A program made the translations under genes and the position numbers. 64,000 nt of DNA. It comes from an uncultured Muribaculaceae bacterium. Lineage in GTDB: Bacteria; Bacillota_I; Bacilli_A; RF39; UBA660. The DNA is taken from contig CAZJHG010000002.1 of NCBI GenBank assembly GCA_964545885.1, positions 10,421 to 74,420 on the forward strand, read 5' to 3'. Below the pieces are notes generated by a model, which made no database searches, had not been told where the DNA came from, and saw nothing but the letters and a program-made list of their open reading frames with translations. Below are positions 5,494 through 55,558 of the stretch, piece by piece. How positions within the stretch are numbered: position 1 is the stretch's first letter; the number at the start of each line of letters is the position of its first letter.

Positions 5494-5508
5494 TAATATA
5501 CACCTCCA

Positions 5509-12001: not shown

Positions 12002-12097
12002 CTAACCACCCCTTAACTACCCTAATTATATCATTTTATTGATATCAAAACAAATTTTGATATTAAAAATATATATTTTGATTTTTTTCTTGTTTAA

Positions 12098-13129: not shown

Positions 13130-13954
13130 CTAATATTCATTATTAGCACTTTTTATAGTTTTTTCGACGGCATCTTTAATCTTTTTTTCGTTAAATGGTT
13201 TGTTTAGCATGTCTACTATGTTATATTCAAATGCTCTACCTATGGCTTCTTTTGATGAATCACCACTAATTATTGTAACTGGCATTTTAGATAATAAATT
13301 ACTTTGTGTCATATAATCTAGTACTTCAAATCCATCTACTTTAGGCATATTTAAATCTAAGAGAACGGCTTTAATACGTCCGTCATCTTCATGCTCTCTT
13401 ATAATTTTTAATGCTTCTTGACCATCAGTTGCAAATGCTAGCTCATAATCAGCATCAAATATTTTCTTTACAAAAATTCTTATTACCTCAGAGTCATCTG
13501 CCACTAAAATAATATCCTCACTTAAAGTATCCGGTTCTTCCACTTCTGGTGCTTCATAATTTTCGTATAAATTTTCAGTATCATGTTCATCTCTTAAATA
13601 CTCATTTACAACAGCTTTTACCTTGCTTGCTTCATCTACTAATGCTTGGTAATTTTCTTTTACATATGCAAGATCACTTGCTTTACTTTTCATTTCATGT
13701 TCATAAGCAATACTTGCTAGCTTGATGAAACCAAAATATTTACAATCGCTTTTTAGTGAGTGAACATATATTGCATAGTTTGGCATGTCTTCATCTTTAT
13801 AGTATTTATCTATTTGATTTAACTTGCCATCAATACTTTTGTTAAATTCTTTAATTGTTTCGTTATATGTTTCAACATCTCCAAATAACTCTAGACATTT
13901 ATTAACGTCTACATTGTTTTCTTTTAAGTAATTAATATCTTTCATTTTATTCAC
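13130..13954 (-). CDS. Phosphorelay protein with an N-terminal Hpt domain and a C-terminal receiver, no output domain.
   Basis: Hpt motif YVHSLKSDCKYFG. REC motifs ILVADDSEV...LLDLNMPKVDG...K. Confidence 0.75.
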   Translation of the reverse strand: MNKMKDINYLKENNVDVNKCLELFGDVETYNETIKEFNKSIDGKLNQIDKYYKDEDMPNYAIYVHSLKSDCKYFGFIKLASIAYEHEMKSKASDLAYVKENYQALVDEASKVKAVVNEYLRDEHDTENLYENYEAPEVEEPDTLSEDIILVADDSEVIRIFVKKIFDADYELAFATDGQEALKIIREHEDDGRIKAVLLDLNMPKVDGFEVLDYMTQSNLLSKMPVTIISGDSSKEAIGRAFEYNIVDMLNKPFNEKKIKDAVEKTIKSANNEY

Positions 13955-13985
13955 CGTACCCTATTTATGTTTTATCATAATATGT

Positions 13986-38227: not shown

Positions 38228-38584
38228 ATATACTCTCCTTTTAATTTTTTTCTATTTGAGATATCTTATGGAGCTTGTATATCTCATAATAGTCGCTAGT
38301 TAGAAACTAGCTTGGTGAAAAATTATGTAACTCGTCAATTGAAATTTGATTGCTACTTAGGATTTTTTTATTAAAAAAGGCCGAATAAAACAATATATTA
38401 TAAATTAATACAATATAAATTGCTTATTCGACCTTTTATTCATAAAACCATTCCCCTGTGCTTATTAAACTGCAATTTCACCATTTGCGACGTTTATACT
38501 AATTTAAATCATATAAATTGTCAACTTTAATTTTAAATTTTAGTCATTTTTTTTGATAAAAATTTGATTTTTAAACAATTTTTG

Positions 38585-38628
38585 AAGCACAAAAAAACAT
38601 TTTTAGTTTATAAAAATGTTTAAAATCA
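38585..38628 (-). terminator. Terminator downstream of the sortase gene.
   Basis: AAACATTTTT-7 nt-AAAAATGTTT hairpin followed by a T-rich tract on the minus strand. Confidence 0.45.
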
Positions 38629-38630
38629 GA

Positions 38631-39431
38631 TTATTCAAGTTCGATAGCACTAATAACATAATAAGTTTTTTCGCCACTATAGGAACAAGTTTGGATAGTG
38701 AGTAAATTGGAGTTTTCGTTATATTCAACATCTCTTGTATAAATTGAATTGTTTAATAAAATTTGAATATGTTCTTTATGATAGTCTTTTGATGTTTCAA
38801 CAACCATGTGTTCATTATCGGTTGTTACTTCTTTTATAGAGAATATTTTATAAATTCGACGTCCACCATCGTGTTGTAATAATATGTATGGATTTTGATT
38901 AAAGAAATCTTTATCTAAAAATTTTTCTAACTTTCTAAATGGTATATCATAAGTAGTGGAATTGTGACCATATACATTTACTTGCTTAGCAGTTGGATCA
39001 GTTCTGAAATCTAAAAATTCTGTACCTTTGACATCCTTTTTTTTATCAATTGAATGATTTAAATAATACTTATTATCAGAAGTTTTAGTTAGTAAAATGT
39101 TGAACAATCCTGGTATTTCTAAACGACCGATAACTTCGTTATTATTATATTTTTTACGATATGATGATAAATCGACATCTTCAGAAAATAAAGATTCAAC
39201 TTGTGACTTTTCACTAACTTTTTCTTCTTCTTTTGATTCTTCTTTAGTGGGAGGTTCATCATCTACTGTTTTAACATCTTTTAACTTAATATCATTTTGA
39301 TTAAGAGTATTTTTTATTTCTTGATTATTTTGGACTAACATTATAGTAGAAGATGCAAATAAAACTACTAGTATGCTAATTATTATATAGAAAATAATAC
39401 TTTTTATAGAAATTTTTTTATTTTTTTCCAT
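38631..39431 (-). CDS. srtB: Class B-type sortase. The start is moved to Met30, which has a GGAGG RBS.
   Basis: TM anchor, catalytic His (NVYGHN), Cys (LTIQTCS) and a downstream Arg. Adjacent to the adhesin gene. Confidence 0.7.
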   Translation of the reverse strand: MEKNKKISIKSIIFYIIISILVVLFASSTIMLVQNNQEIKNTLNQNDIKLKDVKTVDDEPPTKEESKEEEKVSEKSQVESLFSEDVDLSSYRKKYNNNEVIGRLEIPGLFNILLTKTSDNKYYLNHSIDKKKDVKGTEFLDFRTDPTAKQVNVYGHNSTTYDIPFRKLEKFLDKDFFNQNPYILLQHDGGRRIYKIFSIKEVTTDNEHMVVETSKDYHKEHIQILLNNSIYTRDVEYNENSNLLTIQTCSYSGEKTYYVISAIELE

Positions 39432-39618
39432 AGTATACCTCCATCTAAATGAGTTCGAACTTGTTATGATTATTTTTTTTATAATACCTTTTTTTTTACT
39501 ATTATTCAAGTGAATCACATTAATATTTTATTCTTTTACTTTATTATGTATATGATTTTTTTCGTAGTTAACGCAAAGGTATTATAACATATTTTTATAA
39601 ATAATTTTATATTTCCAA

Positions 39619-39709
39619 TTATTGAAATTTACTAATATTAAGGATTATTGCTATGGATACCATTGATATTAATAAAGATGAACCACCATAAGATAGAAAT
39701 GGTAAGGTT
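39619..39709 (-). pseudogene. Displaced 3' coding fragment of the SEDS (spoVE/ftsW-like) gene, encoding ...LPFLSYGGSSLLISMVSIAIILNISKFQ*.
   Basis: Minus-strand translation gives the hallmark SEDS C-terminal motif T-G-I-T-L-P-F-L-S-Y-G-G-S-S. The fragment is in frame with the 9-bp repeat that also ends the 5' portion at 46181..46189. Confidence 0.7.
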
Positions 39710-39718
39710 ATACCAGTT
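39710..39718. repeat. Left copy of the 9-bp direct repeat ATACCAGTT (recombination core) flanking the inserted element.
   Basis: Identical 9-mer at 46181..46189. Both lie in the same reading frame of the SEDS gene (codons T-G-I). Confidence 0.65.
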
Positions 39719-39783
39719 ACAAGTTTTACGGGAGAAAATATTTTGTGTTGCTTTTTTACGGGAGATGAAACAAGATAAAAAAA

Positions 39784-41364
39784 TTACTTTAAATATCTAG
39801 AAAGTTCTTGAAATCTAAAGAATACATTTACATTTTTATCATTATCTATTTCTACTCTATCGATTAATTCAACTACTATTGCACGAGTAGGATACTTTGA
39901 TGATAAAAACTTGTTTACTAATTCTGTACAAGTATCATAGTCTAATTTTTTTATTTTTGATAACATTTTAATCTTATCTTTTTCTAGTTTTTTCTTTTGT
40001 GTAGTTGCATTGTTTAAATCTTTATTATATCTATCAATTAAGTTAGAAAATATATTTTCAGGAATTTTACCTTGTACTTTATCCATATATAATTGTTCAA
40101 TAGCGTTGTTATATTTGGCTATTTCTTTTATTAAGATATCTATTTGTTTCTGCAATTCCGTTGATTCTTCATGTAAAATTGCATTTACTTCTTTGGTTAA
40201 TGATTTACCATCATATTCTTTAATAAATAGTTTGCAAATATTTCTAATAACTGATATCAAATCATCCTCTAGTAGATTATAGTTTAATCTATGGATATTA
40301 CATATTCCATACTTACCTTTTTTGCTATACTGATTGCATTGTGTATAATGAGATTTATCTCTTTTATTCTTTCTTTCTAAAATGCTAATCGTATGTCCAC
40401 ATTCTTTACACTTTAATAATCCACTAAATAAATATCTATCTTTATTCTTTTCTATCGTCTTTGAATTTGCTTTTAACATTTTATTTACTTTATCGAAAAT
40501 TTCTTTATCAATTATTGGTTCGTGAGTATTCTCAACTATAATATAATTTTCTTTTCTTACTGCTCTAACTTTATTGGAATTATATCTAACCTTATTGAAA
40601 GTATTTTGAACCATATTACCTAAATACATTTCGCTAGTTAAGATGCTTCTTATTGTTTGAGGCCTCCAAATGCCATAACCATCATTTTCAGTAATTGCTG
40701 CTCCTCTAGTTTCCTTCTTGTAAATTATTGGTATTGGAATTTTTTCAAGAGTTAATATATTAGCTATCTTATAACAACTATTACCTGCATATGCCATTTT
40801 AAAAATTCTTTTTACAACTTGTGATGCATTTGGGTCTATAACTAATTTGTGATGATCGGTTGGATCTTTCAAATATCCATACTTTGGAATTGATCCAATA
40901 TATTCTCCTTTTTTTTGCCTGGCAGTAAATGCTGATTTAACCTTTCTAGATGTATCTCTTAAGATATAGTCATTATAAGTTAATTTCATCGAAATCATAC
41001 TATCCCCCTCGAGTGAATCATAACCATCGTTTATTGCAATGTATCTTACACCTTTTTCACAAAAATAATCTTCGATAAATGAACCTGTTTGGTATAATTC
41101 ACGACCTAATCTTGAAAGGTCTTTCGTTAGTATACAATCTATTTTCCCTGATTCTATATCTTCAATCATTCTTTTAAATCCCGGTCTTTCAAAATTACCA
41201 CCAGAGTATCCGTCATCAACATATTCCTCTATAAGTTCTAGATTATGGTATTTACAAAATGATTCAATAATCATTCTTTGACTCTCAATTGAAGTACTCT
41301 CGTCTTTTTTTAATAAGTCCTCTTTTGACAACCTTAAATAATTACCGCATTTATATCTCTTCAT
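39784..41364 (-). CDS. Large serine recombinase: resolvase catalytic domain, recombinase domain, zinc ribbon and coiled-coil.
   Basis: N-terminal YLRLSKED (catalytic Ser) and DGYSGGNFERPGF...LSRLGRE. Cys pairs CKECGH...C. 526 aa. Confidence 0.85.
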   Translation of the reverse strand: MKRYKCGNYLRLSKEDLLKKDESTSIESQRMIIESFCKYHNLELIEEYVDDGYSGGNFERPGFKRMIEDIESGKIDCILTKDLSRLGRELYQTGSFIEDYFCEKGVRYIAINDGYDSLEGDSMISMKLTYNDYILRDTSRKVKSAFTARQKKGEYIGSIPKYGYLKDPTDHHKLVIDPNASQVVKRIFKMAYAGNSCYKIANILTLEKIPIPIIYKKETRGAAITENDGYGIWRPQTIRSILTSEMYLGNMVQNTFNKVRYNSNKVRAVRKENYIIVENTHEPIIDKEIFDKVNKMLKANSKTIEKNKDRYLFSGLLKCKECGHTISILERKNKRDKSHYTQCNQYSKKGKYGICNIHRLNYNLLEDDLISVIRNICKLFIKEYDGKSLTKEVNAILHEESTELQKQIDILIKEIAKYNNAIEQLYMDKVQGKIPENIFSNLIDRYNKDLNNATTQKKKLEKDKIKMLSKIKKLDYDTCTELVNKFLSSKYPTRAIVVELIDRVEIDNDKNVNVFFRFQELSRYLK

Positions 41365-41902
41365 AACTTATTTTTCTCCTATATAATATGTTAATTAGAG
41401 ACACTTAAATATTGCATTAATTATAATATATTTTAGTGTCTCTTTTATTGTTACTAATTAGCCTATTTTTGACTTTCCTCATCTTTTTTTATTTCCCTTA
41501 TATATATTAAAAAATGCTCTTTTATAATTCGGTATAAATCTTTACCATTTGAATTATAAGTTAATTTAATATTATAATTTAAATTATTGCTTTTCATCTC
41601 GGTATCACTCTCCTCTAAAGTTTATTAAAAATTACGTAAATTTATGCAGCAAAAAAATCAATACATTTTGTATTGACTTTTCTTATTTTATTACTATTTT
41701 TAAAATTCTTTATTGATTTTGTTTTATCATAAACATTTTTGTTAAAATCAAAAGTAAACGTTGGTATTCTTTCTTTAAAGTCTGTTTAGGTATTATACTT
41801 TATAATTACCTCTGCGAATATTTTATTCAAATTTTATATCTCCTTTTGCAAATAATAAAGATTGCCCTTAAAATGGCAATCTTTTTTGCTTTATTTATTA
41901 TT

Positions 41903-42700
41903 TTACCAAGATAAACCGCTCCATGTTGCTTGTGCAGTCGACATCGAATCATAAGATTCTATTATAGATACAGAAACACTTGAATCAAAATTAATTCCAC
42001 CTGTACCAATACTTACTGCATTACTAACGGAACTACTAACTGTTTTTTGAGCATGCTTATAATCACCGTATGCATTTAATGTTAGGATAGTTGCCGATGT
42101 TAACTTTTGAATATCAAAATACATATGTGAACTGAGTGCTGTTACTGTTGTTGTTGATGTGTTTGCTGGAAGTTTAAAAGTTACTGCATATCCCGTACCA
42201 CTTAATTCCCAGGCTCCTGAAGTACTATTTTCATAATAACATACCGAATTGGCTGAATCGTTAATGTCGGCAATTCTTTTAAAAAATTTACTTGATGAAA
42301 CCCCAGAAATAGTACTATCTATTCCGATTCCTTGAATATCATAACTTCTTGTACTAGGCATTTTTTTCCATACTAGGTCGTTTTTATATCTATAATAACT
42401 ACCATTTTTAACGATTGTTGTTGTCATTTTCTTATAATTTGTTTCTGTATAGCCATTTGTATTTCCTAATGGAATTATTAATGCTTCGTCATTTGAATTA
42501 TTGTATTCTTCTTCTGTAATTTCTACAGTAATTGATATTGGATTTGTTTTATTATTTATAGATTTTGTCGAAGCATTACTATGTGTTGTTATTGTTTTAT
42601 AGTATTTTGTAGTTTGAGCAACTATTTCTCCATTTAAATTTTTGTTGTTATCGAACTCCTCTTGTTCCATAGTAATGATTTCTCTCTCAGAAAAGCCCAT
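41903..42700 (-). CDS. Secreted-protein paralog A, mature-domain ORF. The signal-peptide segment lies upstream in the same frame, beyond an in-frame TAA.
   Basis: About 40% identity to the 248-aa paralog (YYKTI...NGYTETNYKKMTT...TRSYDI.GIG...ATW.G.SW). Lacks its own signal peptide. Confidence 0.5.
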   Translation of the reverse strand: MGFSEREIITMEQEEFDNNKNLNGEIVAQTTKYYKTITTHSNASTKSINNKTNPISITVEITEEEYNNSNDEALIIPLGNTNGYTETNYKKMTTTIVKNGSYYRYKNDLVWKKMPSTRSYDIQGIGIDSTISGVSSSKFFKRIADINDSANSVCYYENSTSGAWELSGTGYAVTFKLPANTSTTTVTALSSHMYFDIQKLTSATILTLNAYGDYKHAQKTVSSSVSNAVSIGTGGINFDSSVSVSIIESYDSMSTAQATWSGLSW

Positions 42701-42721
42701 ATTTTGTAAATTTTCTAATTA

Positions 42722-42853
42722 CTGTTCTGAAATTTTTATATTATTAGCATTAGTATAATACCCGTTTTCGTCTAGTTCAAATGCGCTTACATTTTTGATC
42801 GAAAATAATAAAGTGAATATTGAGAATATTGGGAATAAAATATTTTTTTTCAT
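42722..42853 (-). other. 44-codon ORF encoding a signal peptide (MKKNILFPIFSIFTLLFSIKNVSA|FELDENGYY...). It is in frame with the downstream 265-aa ORF and separated from it by a single TAA at 42719..42721.
   Basis: Direct translation. Classic n/h/c signal-peptide regions with a VSA cleavage site. Confidence 0.45.
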
Positions 42854-43052
42854 ATAATATGATTTTCCTTTCTTTTTTTAATTGATAATTATTTGCTTTT
42901 TAATTTACCACCATCCAATCTTTATTTCTCAAAATATTTCAACTACTGTTTTGTATTTTAACTATAATTTGTGTATAAATCTTTTTTATATTGTTCACTA
43001 TGAGATTTTTTTATCCTAAAAGATATTTTTAAAATTATTGAATAATTTACAA

Positions 43053-43799
43053 TTACCAACTGCCTGTCCATGTAGCATTAGCAGTGTTGATAGAATCATA
43101 ATAATTAGCTATTGTGGATTTAAGTATTATTCCCCCTGATTCCACGGTGTATTTTTGAGCGTTAGAATAACTAATTGTTTCAGTTGCATGAGCATAATCT
43201 CCATATGCATATTGTTTGATGATTGTACTAGAATTATTTGCTTTTTCCATATCAACATATAAGATTTGATTTAATGAAGATAAAGAACCAGATGGTAAAG
43301 AGAAAGAAGCGCCCACTCCATAAGTTCCTATATATGGGGTGTATACTGTTTCTGTATCGCAATCGCCATTAGAATAACAATAATTTTGTACAAATGATAC
43401 ACTTGATTCTGGTTTAACACTTGACGGAAAACCTATCCCTATAATATCGTAACTTCTTGTATTAGGAATTGTCTTCCACTCAAGTATAACTTTATATCTA
43501 TATGTTGTTCCATTTTTTGCTATAGAGGTGGTCATTTTCTTATAGTTTGTTTCTGTATAACCATTTGTTGCGCTAAGTGGTAATATTAAACAATTATCTT
43601 TATAACTTTCGTATTCTTCTTTTGATATTTCTACGCTATAAGATTTTGTATTTTCGTTCATTGAATATGCAAAATTTTCACTATTTGCAAAATTTATTGT
43701 TTTATAATATTTTGTAACAGACACTAACTCTTTGTCTTCGGCTGATACTACTATTGGTATTGCCATTAATATTAATAAAATTAAAACTCCTTTTTTCAT
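43053..43799 (-). CDS. Secreted-protein paralog B, 248 aa, with an intact signal peptide.
   Basis: MKKGVLILLILMAIPIVVSA signal peptide. Paralogous to 41903..42700. Ends in W-x-G-S-W. Confidence 0.55.
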   Translation of the reverse strand: MKKGVLILLILMAIPIVVSAEDKELVSVTKYYKTINFANSENFAYSMNENTKSYSVEISKEEYESYKDNCLILPLSATNGYTETNYKKMTTSIAKNGTTYRYKVILEWKTIPNTRSYDIIGIGFPSSVKPESSVSFVQNYCYSNGDCDTETVYTPYIGTYGVGASFSLPSGSLSSLNQILYVDMEKANNSSTIIKQYAYGDYAHATETISYSNAQKYTVESGGIILKSTIANYYDSINTANATWTGSW

Positions 43800-43925
43800 A
43801 TAGTATCATTCCTTTCAATGTTAGTTCCTTTATTGATTAAATAATATCACTTACAAAAAAATACATAACACCTTATTAGGCGGATTATGTATCTTAAAAA
43901 GAGAATCTTCGTTAAAATTGTGTAT

Positions 43926-44714
43926 TTATTTATATAAGACATTATTGTATTCTTTATCAATTATTGACAGCTTGTATTCTTTTTTTTCTTTTATATTATC
44001 ACTTGTACTATATTCGAGAAAGAGAATTAGATTGTTATCACTTATTTTATTTTTCTTCGTTTCTTTTTTGCTTTCATTAAAAAGTATCGAAAAGTTTTCT
44101 AATAATTCACTAATATAATACATTTTAATATTTCCCTCATCATCGTATTGTTCATTAAAAGTATAATTTAATATTACTTCATTATCATTCAGTATAGATA
44201 TTTTTAATTTACTTATTCTTAGTTCATCAGGAGTGCCCTTATCATTTGATTGATATATCAGATTTTTTAAAAACACTAATTCCTTATTTTTTTGATTTAT
44301 TATATAACCTTCTGAATAAAATGACTCATTATCTAAAACAAATTTTATATATCCATATTTGTTATAATTATTATATACAAACGATAATAAGCAAATATTT
44401 AAGAAGATTAGTATTAATATAATTACTATTAAAAAAATATTTTTTCTTATAAAAACATTAGTGTTTTTGATTTTGGGATTTTTAGGAGATGTAGATTCTT
44501 GCTTACCAGATAACAATTCTTTAGTGGTAATTCCTAATTCATCAGCTAATTTATTAACAATTGAAATATCAGGAGTTGTTATACCACATTCCCACTTTGA
44601 TACTGCTTTGCTATTAACTCCCATTTTTTGACCAAGTTGCTCTTGAGTAAGTTTTTTTTCTTTTCTTAATTTTGCAATTAATTTACCTATTTTTGCTTGA
44701 TCCATACACATCAC
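43926..44714 (-). CDS. Membrane-anchored XRE-family (Cro/CI HTH) transcriptional regulator with an extracytoplasmic C-terminal domain.
   Basis: HTH LTQEQLGQKMGVNSKAVSKWECG, a single TM (FLIVIILILIFLNICLLSFV), and a ~150-aa C-terminal domain. Confidence 0.65.
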   Translation of the reverse strand: MMCMDQAKIGKLIAKLRKEKKLTQEQLGQKMGVNSKAVSKWECGITTPDISIVNKLADELGITTKELLSGKQESTSPKNPKIKNTNVFIRKNIFLIVIILILIFLNICLLSFVYNNYNKYGYIKFVLDNESFYSEGYIINQKNKELVFLKNLIYQSNDKGTPDELRISKLKISILNDNEVILNYTFNEQYDDEGNIKMYYISELLENFSILFNESKKETKKNKISDNNLILFLEYSTSDNIKEKKEYKLSIIDKEYNNVLYK

Positions 44715-45146
44715 CTTTTACTAATGGATTATGTATTATTTTAATTTATTTACTTTCTTTTGTAAATATTAAATCAATTTTCTCTATATCTCACGTACCT
44801 ATCGTATAACAGACACAAAAGTAATGCAAATATACCATTGGTCAAGTTTTACTTTATTAGATTTCTGCTATCACTAAAGATATACTTAACTCTTTTATCT
44901 ATTTCAGATTCTTCGGGCTTAAAATTTTGTTCTAACGCCTCCAACCTTTTATATTTTCTATGTTCTTCTTACTACTTTACCATATCTATTTCATATACAA
45001 ATGTTTAAATTAATTTTTGCAAACAGAAAAGCAGTACATTTCTAAAAAAGATAATGTGCTGCTATTTATCTATATTTGTTAGATTATTTATAATGTTGGT
45101 TATAAAGATTTTTCCATCAATTTTAAAATAAAAATTATATTACAAA

Positions 45147-45755
45147 TTATTGACAGTTATTTTCTATCTGCATATCGGCATCACCTATAATGACATCATT
45201 ATTACTTGATGTAGTATTACAAACAATGATATTGAAATTATCGTATTTGTACAATTTGCTTTCGCTATTTTTGTCTGATTCGATTATTTTGGCTTTAGTC
45301 AATATATCATCAAAAGTTACTAATTCATTTTTTAAAGAAATTTCTATATTATATTTATGATTATTTTCAATTAAAGATAACTTGAAATCTGTATTCCCGT
45401 AATAGTAATCAACCTTATTATAATTAAATGCAAATATTTTTTCATATTTTGTATTACTATTTACAGTTACTGAAAAATCATAATTAACAAATTTCTTTAT
45501 TTGTATATTGTCAATGGGACAGGTAAAATTAATACCTTTTAATTTCCAAATTACTGTAGTAATATCTTGTTCTCTAGTACAATAATAAGTATCTATAAAA
45601 ATTCCTCGTTTAACCCAACTATCGTCATCTGCTAAATTTTCTTTCCAGCTAATAATTGGACTATGTTTCAATATTCTTGCTTGTAATGTATCTAATAATA
45701 AAATTCCGATTAAAATTCCTAAAATAATAAATATCTTTCTTATGTTTTTTTTCAT
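45147..45755 (-). CDS. Small secreted or membrane-anchored hypothetical protein, 202 aa.
   Basis: N-terminal signal/anchor MKKNIRKIFIILGILIGILLL. Confidence 0.45.
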   Translation of the reverse strand: MKKNIRKIFIILGILIGILLLDTLQARILKHSPIISWKENLADDDSWVKRGIFIDTYYCTREQDITTVIWKLKGINFTCPIDNIQIKKFVNYDFSVTVNSNTKYEKIFAFNYNKVDYYYGNTDFKLSLIENNHKYNIEISLKNELVTFDDILTKAKIIESDKNSESKLYKYDNFNIIVCNTTSSNNDVIIGDADMQIENNCQ

Positions 45756-46095
45756 ATTTCCTCCGATTTCATAAATTTCTTTTTATAATTATATTATTTT
45801 TTGCTTATTAACTTCCACCACTTATTGAGAGAAATAGGTATCTTTATAAGAGAATAAACCTTATTGCAGATTGTTAAAGCAAAACATAACTTTCAATAAG
45901 TATTTATATTACTTATCTTCTTCTAATATATTTTTAATAAATCATATTAAAAGACTTGTGTTTCTTTCTCATTTATATTTTTCCATCACATTTTGAGTTC
46001 CGATCGACTTTGTTTTTCCCAACATTGTAACCTCTTAATATCCCTTAAGGAAAATGTATTTTTTTGTCAAAAAAACAGTTTTTCCTGTTAGTTTG

Positions 46096-47172
46096 CTATT
46101 TTTTATTTTTTATAAAATCTTCTAAATTCTTTATTTTAAAGGGAAAAAGGCATTTTTTTATTTTCTCCCCTACAAATGTAATACCAGTTGTAGGAATAGT
46201 ACCAGTAACAACTAATATATTTAGTGCTACTTGAAGAATCAAACCGAATGATAACCCAAATGATAAATATTTTTTAAATAAATCTTTTTGTGATAAAGAT
46301 ATTCTTATAGAACGATAAAAAATTATACTAAATAATCCTAATACTAAAATTACACCAAGTATGCCAAATTCCTCAGCTATTATACTAAATATAAAATCAG
46401 TTTGAGGTTCTGGAAGATAAAAATTTTTTTGAATAGAATTACCAAAACCAACTCCTAATAAACCTGAAGGAACAATAGCATATAGACTTTGAATTATTTG
46501 GAAACCACTACCTAATGGATCACTCCATGGATTTAAATATGCAGTTATTCTTTGAAGACGATATGGAGCTATGACTATTAAAATAACTATCCCTATTAAA
46601 CCTAATATTCCAACTTTTATAAAAAACGATAAGTCTGGACCTGATACGTAGATTAATACTACTAAAGTTAGGACAATTACCATAGCAGTTCCAAAGTCAG
46701 GCTCTAACATTATTAAAAAGAAAAAAATACAAATAACTAAAAATAATGGTAAAAGACCTTTCTTTATATCTTTAATACTTTTATTATTATGAGATAAATA
46801 TTTAGATGTATAAATAATTAGACCTAATTTAGAAAACTCTGACGGCTGGATACCTAAGGACCCTAAACCAAACCAACTACGAGAACCATTTCTTACTTTA
46901 CCTATTCCTGGTATCAAGACTAATATTAATAATGAAAGACATACTAAAAGTATATTATTTGAATTTTTTTCTAATATAGATAAATCTAATTTAGTTATAA
47001 TTAACATTACTATTAAACCAAGTAAAAAAAATATTAATTGAGATTTTAAATACTTAAATTCATCATTATATTTATATGCAGCCCATATGCTACTGGAGGA
47101 ATAAACCATTAAAATACCAAAACATATTAATATAATAGTTGACACTAAAAGAATTTTATCTATTTTCTTCAT
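46096..47172 (-). CDS. spoVE: SEDS-family peptidoglycan glycosyltransferase (SpoVE/FtsW/RodA-like). Its conserved C-terminus is replaced by 27 element-encoded residues.
   Basis: Motifs PSEFSK, PDFGTAMV, YLPEPQTDFIFS and LNILVVTGTIPTTGITF. It lacks the LPFxSYGGSS motif, which is found instead at 39619..39709. Confidence 0.7.
   Translation of the reverse strand: MKKIDKILLVSTIILICFGILMVYSSSSIWAAYKYNDEFKYLKSQLIFFLLGLIVMLIITKLDLSILEKNSNNILLVCLSLLILVLIPGIGKVRNGSRSWFGLGSLGIQPSEFSKLGLIIYTSKYLSHNNKSIKDIKKGLLPLFLVICIFFFLIMLEPDFGTAMVIVLTLVVLIYVSGPDLSFFIKVGILGLIGIVILIVIAPYRLQRITAYLNPWSDPLGSGFQIIQSLYAIVPSGLLGVGFGNSIQKNFYLPEPQTDFIFSIIAEEFGILGVILVLGLFSIIFYRSIRISLSQKDLFKKYLSFGLSFGLILQVALNILVVTGTIPTTGITFVGEKIKKCLFPFKIKNLEDFIKNKK
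46181..46189. repeat. Right copy of the 9-bp direct repeat ATACCAGTT.
   Basis: See the left copy. Adjacent inverted-repeat arm TCTCCCCTACAAA. Confidence 0.65.
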
Positions 47173-47230
47173 GTAATCACCTATTTAAATATATTTTACT
47201 TTATTAAAAAAATAATATGAGCTAGTCATA

Positions 47231-48436
47231 TTATTTGAATTTTCTTTTCTTTTTAGTAAATAAATTTAAACATAAGAGAAGTACTATAATAAATGTTATA
47301 ACAATAATTATAGATATTGGAGATTCTGTATCTTCTGGTTCGATAGAAAATATTTTATCTTTTAAATGAACGTTATATGTTGAGATGATTTTATCATTTA
47401 CAATTATATCTATGTAACCAAGATTATCTCCAACTTGATTAGATGGTGTTATCTTATCTGCAATATGATATTCTAATGATACATTGTCTAGTTCTTCTTC
47501 TGGTAATGTTACTATTATGTCTTTTTCGGCTGTTACATCATATTCATCTATTGTACCATTTTCAACTTGAATTTTTTTTAATAATTCATCTTTTTTAATT
47601 AATGTTTTACTACTAAATGTAATGGTAGATAAATAATTATAAATACTATGAGTTTCCAAAATATGAGTTGAAGCATAAGCATTTACATCACAATTCATAA
47701 CAATTAACATATAGTTTGTATCGTTTATATTAGATGTAGATGCCAATAGTAAACCAGCTTCTGGTGTATATCCTGATTTATTACCTGTTAAAAGATTTTC
47801 ATCTAAGCCGTGAAATGTCTCATAACTTCTTGTATAATTATATACAATTAAACCATTCGATAAAGTCTTTTGATTAGTAGAAAATACTTTTTTAAAAGTA
47901 TCATTCTTTAATGCTTCTTTTAGTAGGCGGGATATTTCGCGAGCAGTAGATATATTATTGTCATCTCCACCATATGAATCTGCAAAAGTGGAATTACGTA
48001 AACCTAATTTTTGAGCTTCAAAATTCATTAAGATATTAAATTCTTCGGTTGAACCAGCTGTATGAAGTGCTAAAGCCTGAGAAGCATCAGCACCAGAAGG
48101 TAACATCATAGCATATAAAAGATCTAAATAGCTTAACTTGTCTCCTACTTCTAGACCAGCACAAGTAAAACCATATAAATTATATAAATCATCTTCAGTA
48201 ATAGTAACTTTTTCACTTAAATCATCGACATTATTAATAACAGTATAAGCTGTCATTATCTTAGTTAAAGAAGCCAATATCTGTTTCTTGTCAGGATTCT
48301 TTTCATATACTACTTGGTCAGTATCTAAATTAACAAGAATTACTGAATCAGCAGTTACTTCGATGGGAAGTTCTAAACATTTAGTAGTTGGAATGATTAA
48401 GAAAAAACAACAAATAAAAAACAAGACTTTTTTCAT
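47231..48436 (-). CDS. dacB: Serine-type D-Ala-D-Ala carboxypeptidase (DacB/DacF-like low-MW PBP). The start is moved to Met7, which has a GGAAGTG RBS.
   Basis: Signal peptide. SxxK (ASLTKIM) and KSG motifs. C-terminal TM anchor. Confidence 0.75.
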   Translation of the reverse strand: MKKVLFFICCFFLIIPTTKCLELPIEVTADSVILVNLDTDQVVYEKNPDKKQILASLTKIMTAYTVINNVDDLSEKVTITEDDLYNLYGFTCAGLEVGDKLSYLDLLYAMMLPSGADASQALALHTAGSTEEFNILMNFEAQKLGLRNSTFADSYGGDDNNISTAREISRLLKEALKNDTFKKVFSTNQKTLSNGLIVYNYTRSYETFHGLDENLLTGNKSGYTPEAGLLLASTSNINDTNYMLIVMNCDVNAYASTHILETHSIYNYLSTITFSSKTLIKKDELLKKIQVENGTIDEYDVTAEKDIIVTLPEEELDNVSLEYHIADKITPSNQVGDNLGYIDIIVNDKIISTYNVHLKDKIFSIEPEDTESPISIIIVITFIIVLLLCLNLFTKKKRKFK

Positions 48437-48544
48437 TACATCACTTCCTATCATGCTTTTTTATTTTAACAAATTAATAGTGTTTTTTCAACCAAGGTAC
48501 TAGAATTATTTAAAAATTAAAGCATATATTATTTTGGTGATAAC

Positions 48545-50449
48545 ATGTTTATTAAAGATAAACAATTTAGAATAAAACTAGTACTGGTTATTGTTTTTAT
48601 AATATTTTTTATTATTTTTTTTAGAATTATTTATTTACAAGTTTATCGTAATGATGAACTTGGTACGTTAGCTGAGGCGTTGTGGCAAAGAAATTTACCT
48701 GTTACTGCAGATCGTGGAAGAATACTTGATCGTAACGGGAAAGTTCTAGCGACTAATATAACGACTACTACATTATATGCCGTTCCTAATCAAATTTTGA
48801 ATAAAGAAGATGCTGCACAAAAGTTAGCTAAAATATTAGAAGCTAATTATGATGATATATATGCTCATTTAACTAAAAAAACTTCTTTAGAGAAAATAAA
48901 TCCAGAAGGAAGACAACTTAATAGTGATATTGCTGATAAGATAAATGAGCTTAATATAGATGGTTTATACTTAATGAAAGAGTCTAAAAGATACTATCCT
49001 TATGGAGAAGTATTATCTCATGTACTTGGATATGTTGGAATAGATAATCAAGGACTTTCGGGATTGGAATTAAAATATGATGAATATCTTACTGGGAAGA
49101 ATGGTTCAATAAAATATGTTTCTGATGGTAAAGGTAATAGACTTACTAATAGTGAAGTATATGAACAACCACAGAATGGAATGGATATTTATTTAACTAT
49201 TGATATAGATATTCAACTGGCATTAGAAAAAGAACTAGAAAATGCTACAGCAAAATATAATCCGGAAGAAAGCTTGGCTATGGTAATGAATCCAAATACT
49301 GGGGAAATATTAGCTATGGGGTCAAACCCTACTTTCGATTCGAACAATTATAAAGAATATGACTTAGAAACTATTAATAGGAACTTGCCTATTTGGAAAA
49401 ATTATGAACCTGGGTCCACTTTCAAAATAATTACTTTGGCTGCTTCATTAGAAGAAAAAACAATTAATTTATTTGAAGATACTTATTATGATGGTGGTGC
49501 TATAAATGTTGAGGGAGCTAGGATAAAATGTTGGAAATCTGGTGGGCATGGTGCAGAGACTTTCTTGCAAGTAGTACAGAATTCATGTAACCCGGGGTTT
49601 GTTGTTATGGGGCAAAAGCTAGGTACTGAAACACTTTATAAATATGTTGAAAACTTTGGATTTACGGAAAAAACTGGTATTGATTTAAATGGTGAATCTA
49701 GTGGTATTATGTTTGATTTGGAAGATATTGGGCCTGTTGAACAAGCTACTATATCGTTTGGTCAAGGTATAAGTGTTACTCCGATACAACAAGTTACTGG
49801 AGTTAGTGCTGCTATTAATGGTGGAAATCTGTATACGCCCTATGTTGTTAAATATATAACTGAACCAGAGACAGATGATATTATTTATGAAAATAAACCA
49901 CTTTTAAAAAGAAAAGTTATTAGTGAAGAAACTTCTGAAATGGTTAGGTATGCTCTTGAAACGGTAGTTAATAGTGGGACTGGTAAAAATGCGTATATAG
50001 AAAACTATCGTGTTGGTGGTAAAACTGGAACAGCTCAAAAGGTAAATAATGGAGCTTATATGGTTGGTAATTATATCGTATCTTTTATTGGCTTTTTACC
50101 AGCTGATAAACCAGAGTATGTTGTGTATGTGGCAATTGATCATCCACAAGGAATTACACAATATGGTGGAACTGTTTCGGCACCAATTGCTAAAAGTATA
50201 ATGGAAAGTATCATTAGTATTAAAGAAATTGAGCCGAGTGCTGATATTACCCCTAGAACGTATACTTGGTTAGATACTAAATATGTTAAGTTATCATCGG
50301 TAGTTGGAAAAAGTAAAAAAGAAGCTATTTCTACTTTAAAAGGGTTTAAATTAGAATTTAGTGGTACTGGAGATACCGTAATATATCAAGAGCCAAGTGC
50401 AGATACTTATGTAAAAGAAGGTTCTACAGTTAAAGTGATGCTTAATTAA
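48545..50449 (+). CDS. spoVD: Class B penicillin-binding protein with a single C-terminal PASTA domain (SpoVD-like).
   Basis: N-terminal TM and dimerisation domain. Transpeptidase motifs STFK, SCN and KTGTA. One PASTA domain; PBP2B typically has two. Confidence 0.8.
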   Translation: MFIKDKQFRIKLVLVIVFIIFFIIFFRIIYLQVYRNDELGTLAEALWQRNLPVTADRGRILDRNGKVLATNITTTTLYAVPNQILNKEDAAQKLAKILEANYDDIYAHLTKKTSLEKINPEGRQLNSDIADKINELNIDGLYLMKESKRYYPYGEVLSHVLGYVGIDNQGLSGLELKYDEYLTGKNGSIKYVSDGKGNRLTNSEVYEQPQNGMDIYLTIDIDIQLALEKELENATAKYNPEESLAMVMNPNTGEILAMGSNPTFDSNNYKEYDLETINRNLPIWKNYEPGSTFKIITLAASLEEKTINLFEDTYYDGGAINVEGARIKCWKSGGHGAETFLQVVQNSCNPGFVVMGQKLGTETLYKYVENFGFTEKTGIDLNGESSGIMFDLEDIGPVEQATISFGQGISVTPIQQVTGVSAAINGGNLYTPYVVKYITEPETDDIIYENKPLLKRKVISEETSEMVRYALETVVNSGTGKNAYIENYRVGGKTGTAQKVNNGAYMVGNYIVSFIGFLPADKPEYVVYVAIDHPQGITQYGGTVSAPIAKSIMESIISIKEIEPSADITPRTYTWLDTKYVKLSSVVGKSKKEAISTLKGFKLEFSGTGDTVIYQEPSADTYVKEGSTVKVMLN

Positions 50450-52202: not shown

Positions 52203-52231
52203 TTAAAAAGTACCTTAGTTGGTACTTTTTT
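52203..52231 (-). terminator. Hairpin with a T-run at the 3' end of the effector gene.
   Basis: AAGTACC-6 nt-GGTACTT stem overlapping the stop codon, followed by TTTT on the minus strand. Confidence 0.35.
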
Positions 52232-54521
52232 CTTCTTTATCTTCTTTTTTAGTTATTGCTGTTGTTGCAGCTAAGGCTGATAATGCAGCTGCTGAAACGC
52301 CTAAAAGTTCTGGTGACATATAACTAATTCTATTTGAAGATGTAGTATTTGATGTAAAATCAATTCTTGCTGGTGTTACTGTTTGAGCAGTATTTGAATT
52401 TAAATTATAACCATCAACTCTTGTGTTTGGTATTTCTGGTACACTATCATTAGTGCTATTATTTATTATGTTATTATTGTTTGTTATAACGTTACTATTA
52501 TTTCCAGATCCTATGCTATTGTTATTTTGAACATTCTCTGGTGTTATATAATTTACATTATCTTTGGAAGATGAAATTGTATTATTTGTAACATCAGCAA
52601 TAGTGACGTCTTTTATTAAATCTTGGTTAGGACTTGATAAACTTGGTTCAGTATAAGTTGGTCCTGTTGAAGGCGTTTGATCGCTTGAATTGCCAGTTAA
52701 TGTATTGCCATAACTACTTGATGAAGTGCTACCAGTAGTTGTACTACTTGAATTACTTGATGAAGAGCTTCCGGTAGTTGTGCTTCCTGAGTTACTTGAT
52801 GATGAGCTTCCGGTAGTTGTGCTTCCTGAATTACTTGATGATGAACTTCCGGTAGTTGTGCTTCCTGAATTACTTGATGATGAGCTACCAGTAGTGGTGC
52901 CACTTGAGTTACTTGATGAAGAGCTTCCAGTAGTGGTGCCACTTGAGTTACTTGATGAAGAGCTTCCGGTAGTTGTGCTTCCTGAATTACTTGATGATGA
53001 GCTTCCGGTAGTTGTGCTACTTGAGTTACTTGATGATGAGCTTCCAGTAGTGGTGCCACTTGAGTTACTTGATGAAGAGCTTCCAGTAGTGGTGCCACTT
53101 GAGTTACTTGATGAAGAGCTTCCGGTAGTTGTGCTTCCTGAATTACTTGATGATGAGCTTCCGGTAGTTGTGCTACTTGAGTTACTTGATGATGAGCTTC
53201 CAGTAGTGGTGCCACTTGAGTTACTTGATGAAGAACTTCCGGTAGTTGTGCCACTTGAGTTACTTGAAGAAGAGCTACCAGTAGTGGTGCCACTTGAGTT
53301 ACTTGATGAAGAACTTCCGGTAGTTGTGCTACTTGAATTACTTGATGAAGAGTTTCCGGTAGTTGTGTTTCCTGAATTACTTGATGATGAACTTCCGGTA
53401 GTTGTGCTTCCTGAATTACTTGATGAAGAGCTTCCGGTAGTTGTGCTACTTGAATTACTTGATGATGAACTTCCGGTAGTTGTGCTTCCTGAATTACTTG
53501 ATGATGAGCTTCCAGTAGTTGTACTACTTGAGTTACCTGAGCTTGGGCTTTCTGTTTTATCACTTGTTTCGTTTGAAGTTTTATCAGTATTAGTATTGTC
53601 TTCTTTAGATGTTGTTTCTTGTCCCGCTGATAAATTATCGGCTTTTTGATCTGGCTGAACAGTTTCGTTATAAACTCCATCAATATCAATATCTCCAAGT
53701 TGTTCTAAAATACTTGAACTTACAGAAACGGTTCCAGCTGATGTTTGAGCTCCTGTGGTAGCAGCTGGATCAAAAATCCAAGTATTACCAGCTGAAAATT
53801 GTAATTCATCCCATGAATATCCATCATCATAATTTGAACTACGAAAAGAACGATAAGGGTCGTTTGCTATTATTTTTCCGTCTTCGGTTACTCCTGTACA
53901 CACTAAAAAGTGAGTGCTGTTTTTAACAAGACATATTACTAGTTTTCCTTCTTTAAGGTAATTTACTAAATCTTCTCTACTAGTACTACGATCATTTACC
54001 CAATTTAAACCAACGTAATCAGCAGCCGTTGTCATTTTTCCAACGTTGCTACTTTTATCAGCATTAGCAATTTCAGCCAAATCATCTGGAGTGTATAATT
54101 TACCTAATATATATGATGCAACCATACATAGAGATGTGATACCACATCCACTTGTAGCAACTGTTCCTTGACTATATTTAAGATGTGCATAATCATCTTG
54201 AGTTAATAATGGTACATCAGTAAAATTACCATTTTCATCAATTATACCTTGTTCGCAAAAATCAAATAGTAAAGCGGCTTTACTATCGTTAGCAATTAAG
54301 ATACTTTTTGTTTCTTCGAATTGTTCTATTAATGTTGCTATGTCACCATTTACCAATTTACTAATTGTATTCTGAGCATCTGTAAGAAGAGATTTTTTAG
54401 TTACTTCACTTGGTAGTGTTATGCTTTTTATTTTTTGAGAAAAATCATTAAAATCTTGCTCGATATTTTTTAGTTGTTTAAGGCCATAATATATAGAGCT
54501 ACAATCAATTTGAATATCCAT
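52215..54521 (-). CDS. Candidate T7SS-secreted effector, 768 aa: N-terminal ~115-aa helical domain, C39-like Cys-His peptidase domain, ~330-aa Ser/Thr/Gly tandem-repeat region, C-terminal domain with a terminal hydrophobic segment. The start is moved to Met25 (GAGGTG RBS, 4 nt after the upstream stop).
   Basis: No signal peptide. Cys motif SGCGITSLCM, His motif STHFLVCTG and ANDPY (C39_2-like order). About 25 copies of a 13-aa SSSSSNSGSTTTG repeat. Tail LLGVSAAALSALAATTAI + KKEDKEEK. Confidence 0.65.
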   Translation of the reverse strand: MDIQIDCSSIYYGLKQLKNIEQDFNDFSQKIKSITLPSEVTKKSLLTDAQNTISKLVNGDIATLIEQFEETKSILIANDSKAALLFDFCEQGIIDENGNFTDVPLLTQDDYAHLKYSQGTVATSGCGITSLCMVASYILGKLYTPDDLAEIANADKSSNVGKMTTAADYVGLNWVNDRSTSREDLVNYLKEGKLVICLVKNSTHFLVCTGVTEDGKIIANDPYRSFRSSNYDDGYSWDELQFSAGNTWIFDPAATTGAQTSAGTVSVSSSILEQLGDIDIDGVYNETVQPDQKADNLSAGQETTSKEDNTNTDKTSNETSDKTESPSSGNSSSTTTGSSSSSNSGSTTTGSSSSSNSSSTTTGSSSSSNSGSTTTGSSSSSNSGNTTTGNSSSSNSSSTTTGSSSSSNSSGTTTGSSSSSNSSGTTTGSSSSSNSSGTTTGSSSSSNSSSTTTGSSSSSNSGSTTTGSSSSSNSSGTTTGSSSSSNSSGTTTGSSSSSNSSSTTTGSSSSSNSGSTTTGSSSSSNSSGTTTGSSSSSNSSGTTTGSSSSSNSGSTTTGSSSSSNSGSTTTGSSSSSNSGSTTTGSSSSSNSSSTTTGSTSSSSYGNTLTGNSSDQTPSTGPTYTEPSLSSPNQDLIKDVTIADVTNNTISSSKDNVNYITPENVQNNNSIGSGNNSNVITNNNNIINNSTNDSVPEIPNTRVDGYNLNSNTAQTVTPARIDFTSNTTSSNRISYMSPELLGVSAAALSALAATTAITKKEDKEEKSTN
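52710..53540. repeat. Coding tandem repeat of about 21-25 copies of a 39-bp unit (consensus TTACTTGATGATGAGCTTCCGGTAGTTGTGCTTCCTGAA on the + strand) with point variants.
   Basis: Visible periodicity. Creates artefactual long ORFs in two other frames (52697..53698 -, 52726..53649 +). Confidence 0.85.
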
Positions 54522-54525
54522 TCTA

Positions 54526-54861
54526 TCACCTCTGGTTTGTTCTTCTTGCTTGGGCAGCTTTTGCTGCGTCTTCTTCCTCAGCCTTTTTTGCACTATTATA
54601 TAGTTCTCGATATTTTGCTATTAGTTGGTTACATTCAGATATAATAGAATCTAAATCATCAGAAATATCCTCCAATGAATCTCCCATTGCAGATACTTTC
54701 CCTTGATCCATAGGTTCGCCACAAATAGTTAAATTCTCCATTATCTTTTCACCTTTGGAAACAGAACTTTGGCAATCGCCTAAGTTATCTTTTAAGCCTC
54801 TTATTTTTTCTCTTGCTTTTTCTATTTCGGTTATTTTCTGTGAGTAGTAAGCTGAACTCAT
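54526..54861 (-). CDS. Small coiled-coil protein, 111 aa (Lap/DUF5082-like T7SS partner candidate), translationally coupled to the effector gene.
   Basis: AAGGTGGG RBS; the stop lies 4 nt before the effector ATG. N-terminal heptad pattern and acidic/basic tail. Confidence 0.45.
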   Translation of the reverse strand: MSSAYYSQKITEIEKAREKIRGLKDNLGDCQSSVSKGEKIMENLTICGEPMDQGKVSAMGDSLEDISDDLDSIISECNQLIAKYRELYNSAKKAEEEDAAKAAQARRTNQR

Positions 54862-54884
54862 ATATATTATCCCACCTTTAAATT

Positions 54885-54944
54885 CTTATTTCCTAAAAAG
54901 AAAATGTTTTTTTCTCCTTAGGAAATAAGAAGCATAATGCTTCT
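54885..54944 (-). promoter_or_regulatory. Intra-operon stem-loops between the tandem-WXG gene and the downstream genes; candidate attenuator or processing site.
   Basis: 12-bp stem CTTATTTCCTAA/TTAGGAAATAAG with a 21-nt loop, and the palindrome AGAAGCATaATGCTTCT overlapping the stop. Confidence 0.35.
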
Positions 54945-55558
54945 TAGAATGTATAATTTTTTAATGCTGATGTTATGCTCTCAGATACTTCAGTTAAATT
55001 ATTTTGGTATCTTCTAACGTTACTAATAAATTCTCTGTAAGCACTATCTGCATTTTCTCTACCTGTACCAGCTGTCCAGTTATCCATTATATCTGTATAT
55101 TTGGTATTTACAGAATTAATGAATGTACTTAAATCTGTATTAGCAGTATCAATTAATGTTTTTCCTCTTTCTGCTTCAGGTACTATATCAATTGTATCAG
55201 CAGTATCACTATATGCATCTAGTTCTTGCTTTTGGTCAGTAGTAATTACAGTTAAATATTCAAGTCCAGCATTATTACTATTTTGAATATCACGATATGT
55301 TACTGCAACACCTGAAGAATCTTGAGCTAATGTTGCTAAAGCATTTCTTACTTTAACCATTTCATTATGAACTTCAATTACTCTTTGAATGTTTTTACCA
55401 GCATCTATTCCTTTCCAACAATTCTTTAAATTTTCAATTGCTTCATACAAATTAAAAATAATTGAGTCGGCACTAGCATCGCCGCCTTTTACAACTGTAT
55501 TATATAATTCATATGAAGAGTCATATAATGCTTGTACATTATTTAATTTATGATCCAT
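54944..55558 (-). CDS. Tandem WXG100-like protein, 204 aa, with two helical-hairpin halves.
   Basis: First half has LKNCWKGIDAGKNIQ (W-x-G). Second half has MDNWTAGTGRENADSAYREF. No signal peptide. Heads an operon with the C39-like effector. Confidence 0.5.
   Translation of the reverse strand: MDHKLNNVQALYDSSYELYNTVVKGGDASADSIIFNLYEAIENLKNCWKGIDAGKNIQRVIEVHNEMVKVRNALATLAQDSSGVAVTYRDIQNSNNAGLEYLTVITTDQKQELDAYSDTADTIDIVPEAERGKTLIDTANTDLSTFINSVNTKYTDIMDNWTAGTGRENADSAYREFISNVRRYQNNLTEVSESITSALKNYTF

Follow-up and report, generated by a model that had tools for sequence, protein, structure and literature searches.

All known intervening elements of the skin/gin type are located in mother-cell genes (PMC6957869; PMC5595907). 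In the searchable literature the interrupted mother-cell genes are sigK, spoVFB, spoVR, spsM and gerE, and we found no report there of spoVE or spoVD as a target. Here we describe an element that interrupts a SEDS gene, of the family that includes FtsW, RodA and SpoVE, in a stretch of 64,000 nucleotides (hereafter the window; positions 10,421 to 74,420 of contig CAZJHG010000002.1) from an uncultured bacterium of a Candidatus Coprovivens-like lineage (GTDB order RF39, family CAG-1000). The element, of 6,471 bp, is precisely inserted in the SEDS gene at a duplicated core, and the 3′ end of the gene lies on its far side.

Among the known elements, gin interrupts gerE in Bacillus cereus ATCC 10987 (Abe et al. 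2017, PMC5595907). Like the element described here, gin is small and free of phage genes, has a 9-bp consensus with inverted repeats, and carries a serine recombinase together with a small accessory factor (GirC/GirX in gin; PMC5595907). The truncated 5′ open reading frame (ORF) gains element-encoded residues in both cases; in gin the truncated product was shown to be inactive and the composite gene to work (PMC5595907). The two elements differ in their targets (a transcription factor gene in gin, a SEDS polymerase gene here) and in their number of recombinase genes (three in gin, one here). They also differ in that the present host is an uncultured RF39 bacterium, for which excision, its timing and the accessory factor are putative.

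The skin elements in sigK (B. subtilis, C. difficile and 12 further species) likewise carry a recombinase gene at the edge, directly upstream of the 3′ fragment. As here, only the recombinase is common to the elements in one target, and the split confuses annotation (Galperin et al. preprint). In the C. difficile skin, a recombination directionality factor (RDF) controls cell-type specificity (PMC5025042). In contrast to the present element, skin is prophage-like and of 14.6-48 kb, and it targets a regulator without which a whole regulon is blocked, whereas the target here is a cortex-type wall enzyme. SPbeta in spsM, vfbin in spoVFB and vrin in spoVR are also serine-integrase elements in mother-cell genes for structural proteins or enzymes, which are rejoined by excision, and SprA/SprB of SPbeta is the paradigm of an integrase with its RDF; these three differ from the present element in being (defective) prophages. 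The features of the skin/gin type are found at the present locus: a split coding sequence with both fragments intact, identical short cores, inverted repeats in attP, an empty attB in close relatives and a recombinase gene at the edge. By analogy, the short core, the inverted repeats, the recombinase beside the 3′ fragment, the decaying cargo and the conserved small ORF all appear to match the known elements.

Precise insertion of the element in the SEDS gene

The annotated SEDS ORF matches the Pfam model PF01098 (FTSW_RODA_SPOVE) with 324.5 bits, but only over profile positions 5-327 of 356. The integrated protein reads ...NILVVTGTIPTTGIT and then FVGEKIKKCLFPFKIKNLEDFIKNKK*, where relatives with a canonical end have LPFLSYGGSS and a hydrophobic helix. 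In a six-frame search, the missing canonical end was found once, on the same strand at 39619-39709 (...VTGITLPFLSYGGSSLLISMVSIAIILNISKFQ). It lies in frame behind a second copy of the core, reading (T)LPFLSYGGSSLLISMVSIAIILNISKFQ, and this 3′ segment is intact. When the two segments are joined at the core, they give a protein of 360 aa with full-length matches to the spoVE, ftsW and rodA models (1-354 of 354 positions in TIGR02615 and 1-355 of 357 in TIGR02614). The joined protein is 96% identical to the uninterrupted orthologue P0001, which is also the best homologue of the integrated ORF (97% identity over the aligned part, 360 aa, canonical end). An exact-protein look-up of the 358-aa ORF matched no record. 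The positions of all features are given in Table 1.

A first-pass annotation of this DNA had proposed that the last 85 nt of the SEDS ORF lie inside an element, beyond a 9-bp core, and that the LPFxSYGGSS motif and the final membrane helix are replaced by a tail of 27 residues. We confirmed the first point, in that positions 46096-46180 directly follow the core at 46181-46189, and also the second, in that the motif and the helix are both encoded at 39619-39709 instead. The length of the tail needs a small correction: 27 residues are indeed encoded by the element, but only 26 of them differ, T332 being the same as in the canonical end.

The core 9-mer AACTGGTAT is present 5 times in the window, so the repeat by itself is not significant. 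What makes it significant is that a single reading frame is broken at two of these copies and that a relative has the empty site. This relative (contig L001, about 90% nucleotide identity) has the empty site and a normal SEDS end. It aligns to window positions 48963-46175 and then straight to 39718-37751, with an overlap of just 15 nt around the core, and its SEDS gene directly adjoins the sortase gene. The uninterrupted gene, that is an empty attB, is found in L001 and in most GTDB relatives. Reconstruction of attP by swapping the junction halves gives TTTTCTCCCGTAAAACTTGTAACTGGTATTACATTTGTAGGGGAGAAAA (about 49 bp), whose arms are imperfect inverted copies of each other, TTTTCTCCC...GGGAGAAAA. 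In a second relative, L002 (ENA ERZ13405072), the same insertion site is taken by a related element of 5.1 kb, which keeps the P′ half-site.

Table 1 Features of the SEDS locus, the intervening element and adjacent genes, in window coordinates
Feature	Position	Strand	Description
SEDS ORF, integrated form	46096..47172	minus	358 aa; from the ORF list and translation
SEDS gene 5′ segment	46181..47172	minus	Codons 1-330 and 2 nt of codon 331; ends in attL core
attL core copy, 9 bp, AACTGGTAT (minus strand)	46181..46189	minus	Encodes T-G-I of IPTTGIT; exact repeat at both breakpoints
P′ half-site of attP, TTACATTTGTAGGGGAGAAAA	46161..46180	minus	Inverted-repeat partner of the P arm; gives the first ~7 tail codons
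Element DNA read in the SEDS frame, 85 nt	46096..46180	minus	T-FVGEKIKKCLFPFKIKNLEDFIKNKK, then stop
P half-site of attP, TTTTCTCCCGTAAAACTTGT	39719..39738	minus	Conserved in L002 and L052
attR core copy, 9 bp, AACTGGTAT	39710..39718	minus	Exact repeat
SEDS gene 3′ segment	39619..39709	minus	(I)TLPFLSYGGSSLLISMVSIAIILNISKFQ and stop; fifth extracellular loop (ECL5) motif and membrane helix 10
Intervening element	39710..46180	minus	6,471 bp with one core copy counted; absent from L001
Large serine recombinase gene, 526 aa	39784..41364	minus	Element edge; stop codon 65 nt from attR
44-aa ORF, candidate RDF	41463..41597	minus	Directly upstream of the recombinase gene
Broken paralogous cargo gene	41903..42853	minus	In-frame stop behind a signal-peptide-like N-terminus
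Cargo gene, 248 aa	43053..43799	minus	Hydrophobic, signal-peptide-like N-terminus; paralogue of the 41903..42853 gene (repeat D1)
Cro/CI-type helix-turn-helix (HTH) protein gene, 262 aa	43926..44714	minus	Repressor-like; Pfam HTH_3 1.4e-12 (N-terminal)
202-aa protein gene	45147..45755	minus	Hydrophobic N-terminal segment; 82-85% identical in the L002 element
D-Ala-D-Ala carboxypeptidase gene, PBP5/DacB-like	47231..48454	minus	Peptidase_S11 and PBP5_C; between the SEDS gene and the penicillin-binding protein (PBP) gene
Class B PBP gene, one PASTA domain, SpoVD-type	48545..50449	plus	Intact; TIGR02214 717.9 bits, above the cutoff of 688 (SpoVD equivalog)

Origin of the element-encoded tail

The first 20 of the 85 nt are the P′ arm of attP, and the remainder is non-coding element DNA up to the first stop. 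In the sister element of L002 the arm is kept as TTACATTTGTGTGGGAGAAAAA, and a difference of 1 nt shifts the frame after about six codons, such that the homologous DNA gives a 14-aa tail, FVWEKNKKVHFSN*. Where unrelated elements are inserted at this Gly codon, the tails are 24 aa (L016), 7 aa (L057/L009) and 0 aa (L055, with a stop directly after the Gly codon) long. A peptide whose length varies between 0 and 27 residues, and whose frame differs between sister elements, is not under selection. The tail is thus incidental read-through of attL and no evolved C-terminus. The earlier proposal that the element supplies an alternative C-terminus finds no support in a tail that is conserved neither in length nor in sequence nor in reading frame among related elements.

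At least three junction types with unrelated element-side sequences were observed behind the Gly codon of PTTG in SEDS genes (L055:6720-16724; L016:6880-6960; L057:10990-11100, equal to L009). The occupant in L055 resembles an integrative and conjugative element (ICE), with genes for a type IV secretion system (T4SS) pilin, a single-stranded DNA-binding protein (SSB), a sortase and a SpaA-type surface protein. The shared target looks like convergent use of one highly conserved sequence.

Loss of FtsW-essential residues in the integrated form

The tail differs strongly from the canonical end. Its best 19-residue hydropathy is 0.13, compared with 1.84 for the canonical end, and it carries 8 K/R and 3 D/E residues. 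Across 61 orthologues, the lost residues S337, Y338, G339, G340, S341, S342 and L343 show no variation. The ECL5 mutants Y379A, G380A and G381V/D of E. coli FtsW fail to complement, and ECL5 residues were proposed to line the active-site cavity (PMC8765783). An alignment to P. aeruginosa FtsW (LPTKGLTLPFLSYGGSS) places the break between the retained equivalent of G371, which is G330 of the SEDS protein, and the lost ECL5 residues.

We also modeled the integrated form and the intact orthologue P0001 with AlphaFold2, using the same orthologue alignment for both. The intact orthologue reached a mean confidence (predicted local distance difference test, pLDDT) of 81.9 and a predicted TM-score (pTM) of 0.85, with a helix at residues 340-357 at a pLDDT of about 90, and its model resembles P. 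aeruginosa FtsW 8BH1 with a query-normalised TM-score (TMq) of 0.87. The integrated form reached a pLDDT of 71.8 and a pTM of 0.73, falling below 50 at residues 330-358; past residue 322 it has only short low-confidence helical segments and no helix 10. The first-pass annotation had asked whether the swapped tail could complete TM10; in this model it does not. Both the tenth helix and the S-Y-G-G-S motif of ECL5, by which the SEDS family is recognized, are missing from the integrated ORF.

The charged tail, the absence of helix 10 and the loss of the Y-G-G residues that are essential in FtsW make it most likely that the integrated allele is inactive; judged from its homologues, a non-functional tail and an inactive allele are highly probable. 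The 358-aa protein is probably unstable. The suggestion that the truncated protein retains some function thus receives no support from its charged tail, the very low model confidence or the loss of the FtsW-essential residues. The other suggestion, that the allele is inactivated until excision as in sigK/skin, fits the tail and the lost residues, while the coupling to sporulation that it implies is something we infer. For annotation, the 358-aa ORF and the segment 6.5 kb away are two fragments of one SEDS gene split by a mobile element, as for spoIVCB/spoIIIC, and the ORF is not an intact FtsW/SpoVE gene. Automatic pipelines will report a slightly odd SEDS protein or a missing gene at such a locus.

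A model for excision and restoration of the gene

We favor the explanation that the tail arises by read-through, that the gene is a split gene and that its restoration is coupled to sporulation, and we give this explanation as a whole a probability of about 60%. The ribosome runs across attL, first through the P′ arm and then through non-coding element DNA to the first stop, and the gene consists of the 5′ segment, the core and the 3′ segment. The large serine recombinase would recombine attL with attR inside the core, probably aided by the 44-aa ORF as a directionality factor. Excision would yield a 6.5-kb circle and a restored 360-aa SEDS gene, with attB reading ...CCTACAACTGGTATAACCTTACCATTT... 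and attP reading ...AAACTTGTAACTGGTATTACATTTGTAGG.... It would most likely be limited to the terminally differentiating mother cell, and the spore would keep the element.

The recombinase carries the domains PF00239 (Resolvase), PF07508 (Recombinase) and PF13408 (Zn_ribbon_recom), all above cutoff, and matches the integrase family phrog_95 (2e-100). It is 90% identical in the L002 element and 82-83% identical in those of L052/L053, with a ratio of nonsynonymous to synonymous substitution rates (dN/dS) of 0.07-0.10, and in L002, L052 and L053 it likewise lies at the edge beside the 3′ SEDS fragment. Its closest deposited phage integrases share less than 35% identity with it, and it is absent from the viral contigs searched. 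We consider it quite probable that this recombinase is able to restore the SEDS gene. Upstream of it, the small ORF (44-54 aa) is common to all four related elements and shows a dN/dS of 0.24-0.27, and neither Pfam nor PHROG has a match for it; it is a candidate RDF by analogy, being located where an RDF of the GirX/SprB type is expected.

Restoration in the mother cell is considered likely because the SEDS protein scores best as SpoVE, because a SpoVD-type PBP gene and a DacB-like gene are its neighbors, and because RF39 bacteria are predicted from gene content to form spores (PMC10868615). By analogy with the known elements, the odds that the gene is restored during sporulation in the mother cell seem slightly better than even. 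The joined protein has spoVE as its top NCBIfam model (421.0 bits), followed by ftsW (400.7 bits). Its SEDS fold and the adjacent SpoVD-type PBP are features in common with the SpoVE/SpoVD and FtsW/FtsI pairs.

Several observations weigh against this explanation. The joined protein misses the curated TIGR02615 (SpoVE) cutoff (448.8, with a score of 421.0), whereas its ftsW score of 400.7 passes the ftsW cutoff, in which it differs from SpoVE itself. By eye, no convincing sigmaE or sigmaK promoter was seen upstream of the recombinase gene, the small ORF, the SEDS gene or spoVD, and the boxes upstream of the small ORF (TTGCAT-N16-TAATAa) and of dac look sigmaA-like. Neither another SEDS or class B PBP (bPBP) paralogue nor a core sporulation gene is found within the 64-kb window. 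Neither the attP pattern nor an excised form was found in the viral contig collection. The orthologue alignment behind the two AlphaFold2 models carries no information about the tail. Finally, the integration looks evolutionarily recent and the elements appear to move between species, as suggested by the sequences: dS is 0.47 for the recombinase and 0.99 for the host SEDS gene, and a close intact relative exists for each interrupted allele. Interrupted and intact SEDS alleles alike show a dN/dS of 0.07-0.12, and because the integration looks recent, this low ratio is no proof of maintenance through excision.

We considered dN/dS as a decisive test of maintained function and rejected it, the integration appearing recent. 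A generic sigma-70 scan of the window gave 68 sites compared with 64 expected, which is background. The regions upstream of spoVD and of the SEDS gene hold only ambiguous CATA-type boxes near the ribosome-binding sites.

Alternative explanations

The main rival of sporulation-coupled excision is plain insertional inactivation, in which an element with a site-specific serine integrase sits in a conserved but currently dispensable gene, as might happen where sporulation or peptidoglycan is being lost from a lineage; the gene would be a pseudogene in this strain and excision would serve the transfer of the element only. Repeated independent losses of sporulation and wall genes in RF39 and its neighbors (PMC10868615) agree with this rival, and so do the recent-looking, mobile integrations with their dS values and close intact relatives, the ICE-like occupant of the same site with its T4SS pilin and SSB genes, the lack of a recognized sporulation promoter, and the decay of the cargo genes. 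On the other hand, the fragments are intact, in frame and free of secondary lesions in every interrupted case examined, and at least five independent insertions fall within two neighboring cortex-type genes. Purifying selection acts on the recombinase and the small ORF of an element that is poor in cargo and devoid of transfer genes. This combination of intact fragments, repeated insertions and purifying selection is the pattern of the skin/gin type and is unlike random decay. Overall we regard simple inactivation as rather unlikely, yet as the rival to be taken most seriously. A more speculative reading holds that the SEDS/bPBP pair is no dedicated sporulation enzyme but the main or only SEDS-type wall synthase of the reduced RF39 genomes, and that the elements, placed exactly in its catalytic motifs, act as reversible switches. 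If this were true, the elements between PTTG and ITLPF, behind STFK and behind SCN would toggle the cells between wall-synthesizing and wall-reduced states, and would represent a mobile-element-driven step from walled Bacilli toward mollicute-like cells; we consider it quite improbable.

The remaining alternatives attribute a meaning to the integrated protein itself. It could be functional, either as a nine-helix SEDS protein that polymerizes glycan or as an inactive decoy that restrains the SpoVD-type PBP until excision. Residues 1-332, among them G330 and the counterparts of the ECL2-4 cavity residues, are intact and well modeled, and inactive point mutants of E. coli FtsW do bind FtsI and are dominant-negative (PMC8765783). 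Such a function is nevertheless very improbable, given a tail that varies in sequence, length and frame down to a stop right behind the Gly codon, and given the loss of the FtsW-essential Y-G-G and of helix 10; as for the decoy, the PBP partner is itself split in some genomes, where nothing is left to restrain. The last possibility is that the tail is a lineage-specific C-terminus and that the LPFLSYGGSS fragment downstream is a relic or occurs by chance; the open frame of 358 aa, near the normal orthologue length of 360 aa, may be cited in its favor. This possibility is refuted, its probability being practically nil. The canonical end is present in 116 of the 120 listed orthologue clusters, one of them 97% identical (94 identified by an LPF/SYGG regular expression and 22, with the variant TCVFLSYGGSS, by reading their tails); the remaining four clusters are truncated forms. 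Orthologues without a nearby recombinase have the canonical end, and a related tail was seen solely in P0004/P0007 (L002), with the same recombinase element, so that the tail is not found where the recombinase is missing. In addition, the empty site of L001 aligns base for base.

Gene content of the element

The element has a G+C content of 25.5%, compared with 28% for the window, and all its genes are co-oriented with the SEDS gene. Family and PHROG searches of its proteins identified no phage structural genes. The 262-aa HTH protein, which matches PHROG families of transcriptional repressors, is 84% identical in L002 and has a hydrophobic segment in the middle of the protein. For the small ORF and the three cargo proteins, searches of Pfam, NCBIfam and PHROG gave no matches. 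In the broken cargo gene, the in-frame stop (…NIKISEQ*LENLQNMGFSE…) cuts the signal-peptide-like N-terminus off the remaining protein, and in the L002 element the same gene is reduced to a remnant of 149 aa. Hydrophobic segments, the membrane anchor and signal-peptide-like ends of the element proteins were read by eye from the translations. The cargo of the element is decaying, in contrast to the recombinase, the small ORF, the HTH protein and the 202-aa protein, all of which have been retained.

A hairpin followed by a T-run is located at 41600-41690 (minus strand), upstream of the pair of small ORF and recombinase gene, and is also present in L002, L052 and L053. Its stem is kept by compensatory changes (CAATAC/GTATTG, CTCAAC/GTTGAG and CAATGC/GCATTG), and a box TTGCAT-N16-TAATA(A/T) lies downstream of it. 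The arrangement looks like an insulating terminator with a dedicated promoter for the two genes. At the other end of the recombinase gene, a second copy of the P-arm motif, TCTCCC(G/A)TAAAA, is found at 39740-39770 (minus strand), about 30 bp from attR on the element side, and its conservation extends to L002 (L002:16060-16110). It could be an accessory binding site for the recombinase or an RDF, or part of the 3′ untranslated region of the recombinase gene.

The SEDS gene and its partner in related genomes

The SpoVD-type PBP gene is one gene away from the SEDS gene and is divergently transcribed. In relatives the gene order is bPBP-mraY-(dac)-SEDS, and no mraZ, rsmH or ftsL was found around this cluster. 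The closest cultured homologues of the SEDS protein are encoded in the dcw cluster of Bacillaceae, downstream of two class B PBP genes, the second of which is the closer match to the SpoVD-type PBP of the window. We take this position to be that of spoVE in the dcw cluster of B. subtilis. No second SEDS paralogue was found in the window or in 0.97 Mb of relatives' loci, a result that has no bearing on the whole genome.

The partner PBP gene is interrupted as well in related RF39 genomes, by different serine-recombinase elements. The breaks lie behind SCN of the SxN motif (L002:2845-8658 and L016:780-3198) and behind STFK of the SxxK motif (L011:45-2268). In L002 both the PBP and the SEDS gene are split, the PBP gene being present on both sides of its element, and in L016 the SEDS gene is truncated and the contig holds only the 3′ part of the PBP gene with a recombinase gene ahead of it. 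Because populations assemble with the SEDS gene split, and with the PBP gene split too where the contig reaches, the SEDS/PBP pair is dispensable for growth, which would be expected of a cortex synthase, unlike the divisome. With at least three unrelated elements at one Gly codon of the SEDS gene and others at the SxxK and SxN motifs of its partner PBP, integrases appear to favor the DNA that varies least within genes not needed for growth. With a SEDS polymerase and its SpoVD-type partner, the cortex synthase itself would join the list of interrupted genes, in the uncultured gut lineage RF39. A 'reduced presence of spoVD' was reported for RF39 (PMC10868615); split spoVD genes as in L002, L011 and L016, missed by orthologue-calling pipelines, could contribute to it.

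A well-conserved sigmaA-like promoter, TTGAAA-N17-TAAAAT with TG at -15 as an extended -10, precedes the carboxypeptidase gene (48455-48544; L001-L018). A conserved hairpin terminator follows this gene, between it and the SEDS gene (47173-47230; same region in L001-L018), so that the SEDS gene is apparently transcribed as a unit of its own. Ahead of the SEDS gene lies a short conserved box, AATATATTTAAATAGGTGAT, and a similar box, CATAT(A)TTATTT-GGTGAT, lies ahead of spoVD.

Other gene clusters of the window

Directly downstream of the SEDS 3′ fragment, the region 33044-39518 (minus strand) encodes a sortase and a 1,727-aa surface protein of the VWA and MucBP-repeat type with internal repeats, from which it follows that the organism has a protein-anchoring wall. 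The regions 42-3323 (plus strand), 3710-7724 (minus strand) and 52215-55558 (minus strand) encode a 1,093-aa ATPase of the FtsK/SpoIIIE family, several small ORFs in a row, a 204-aa protein that has a WXG100 domain at its C-terminus and a 792-aa protein that weakly matches Peptidase_C39. These products could be components and substrates of a type VII secretion system, and the WXG100 gene is also present in the relative L002. At 8998-16265 (minus strand), the gene for a 274-aa receiver-domain protein is clustered with those for two histidine kinase/response-regulator hybrids of 638 and 759 aa, which suggests a possible phosphorelay.

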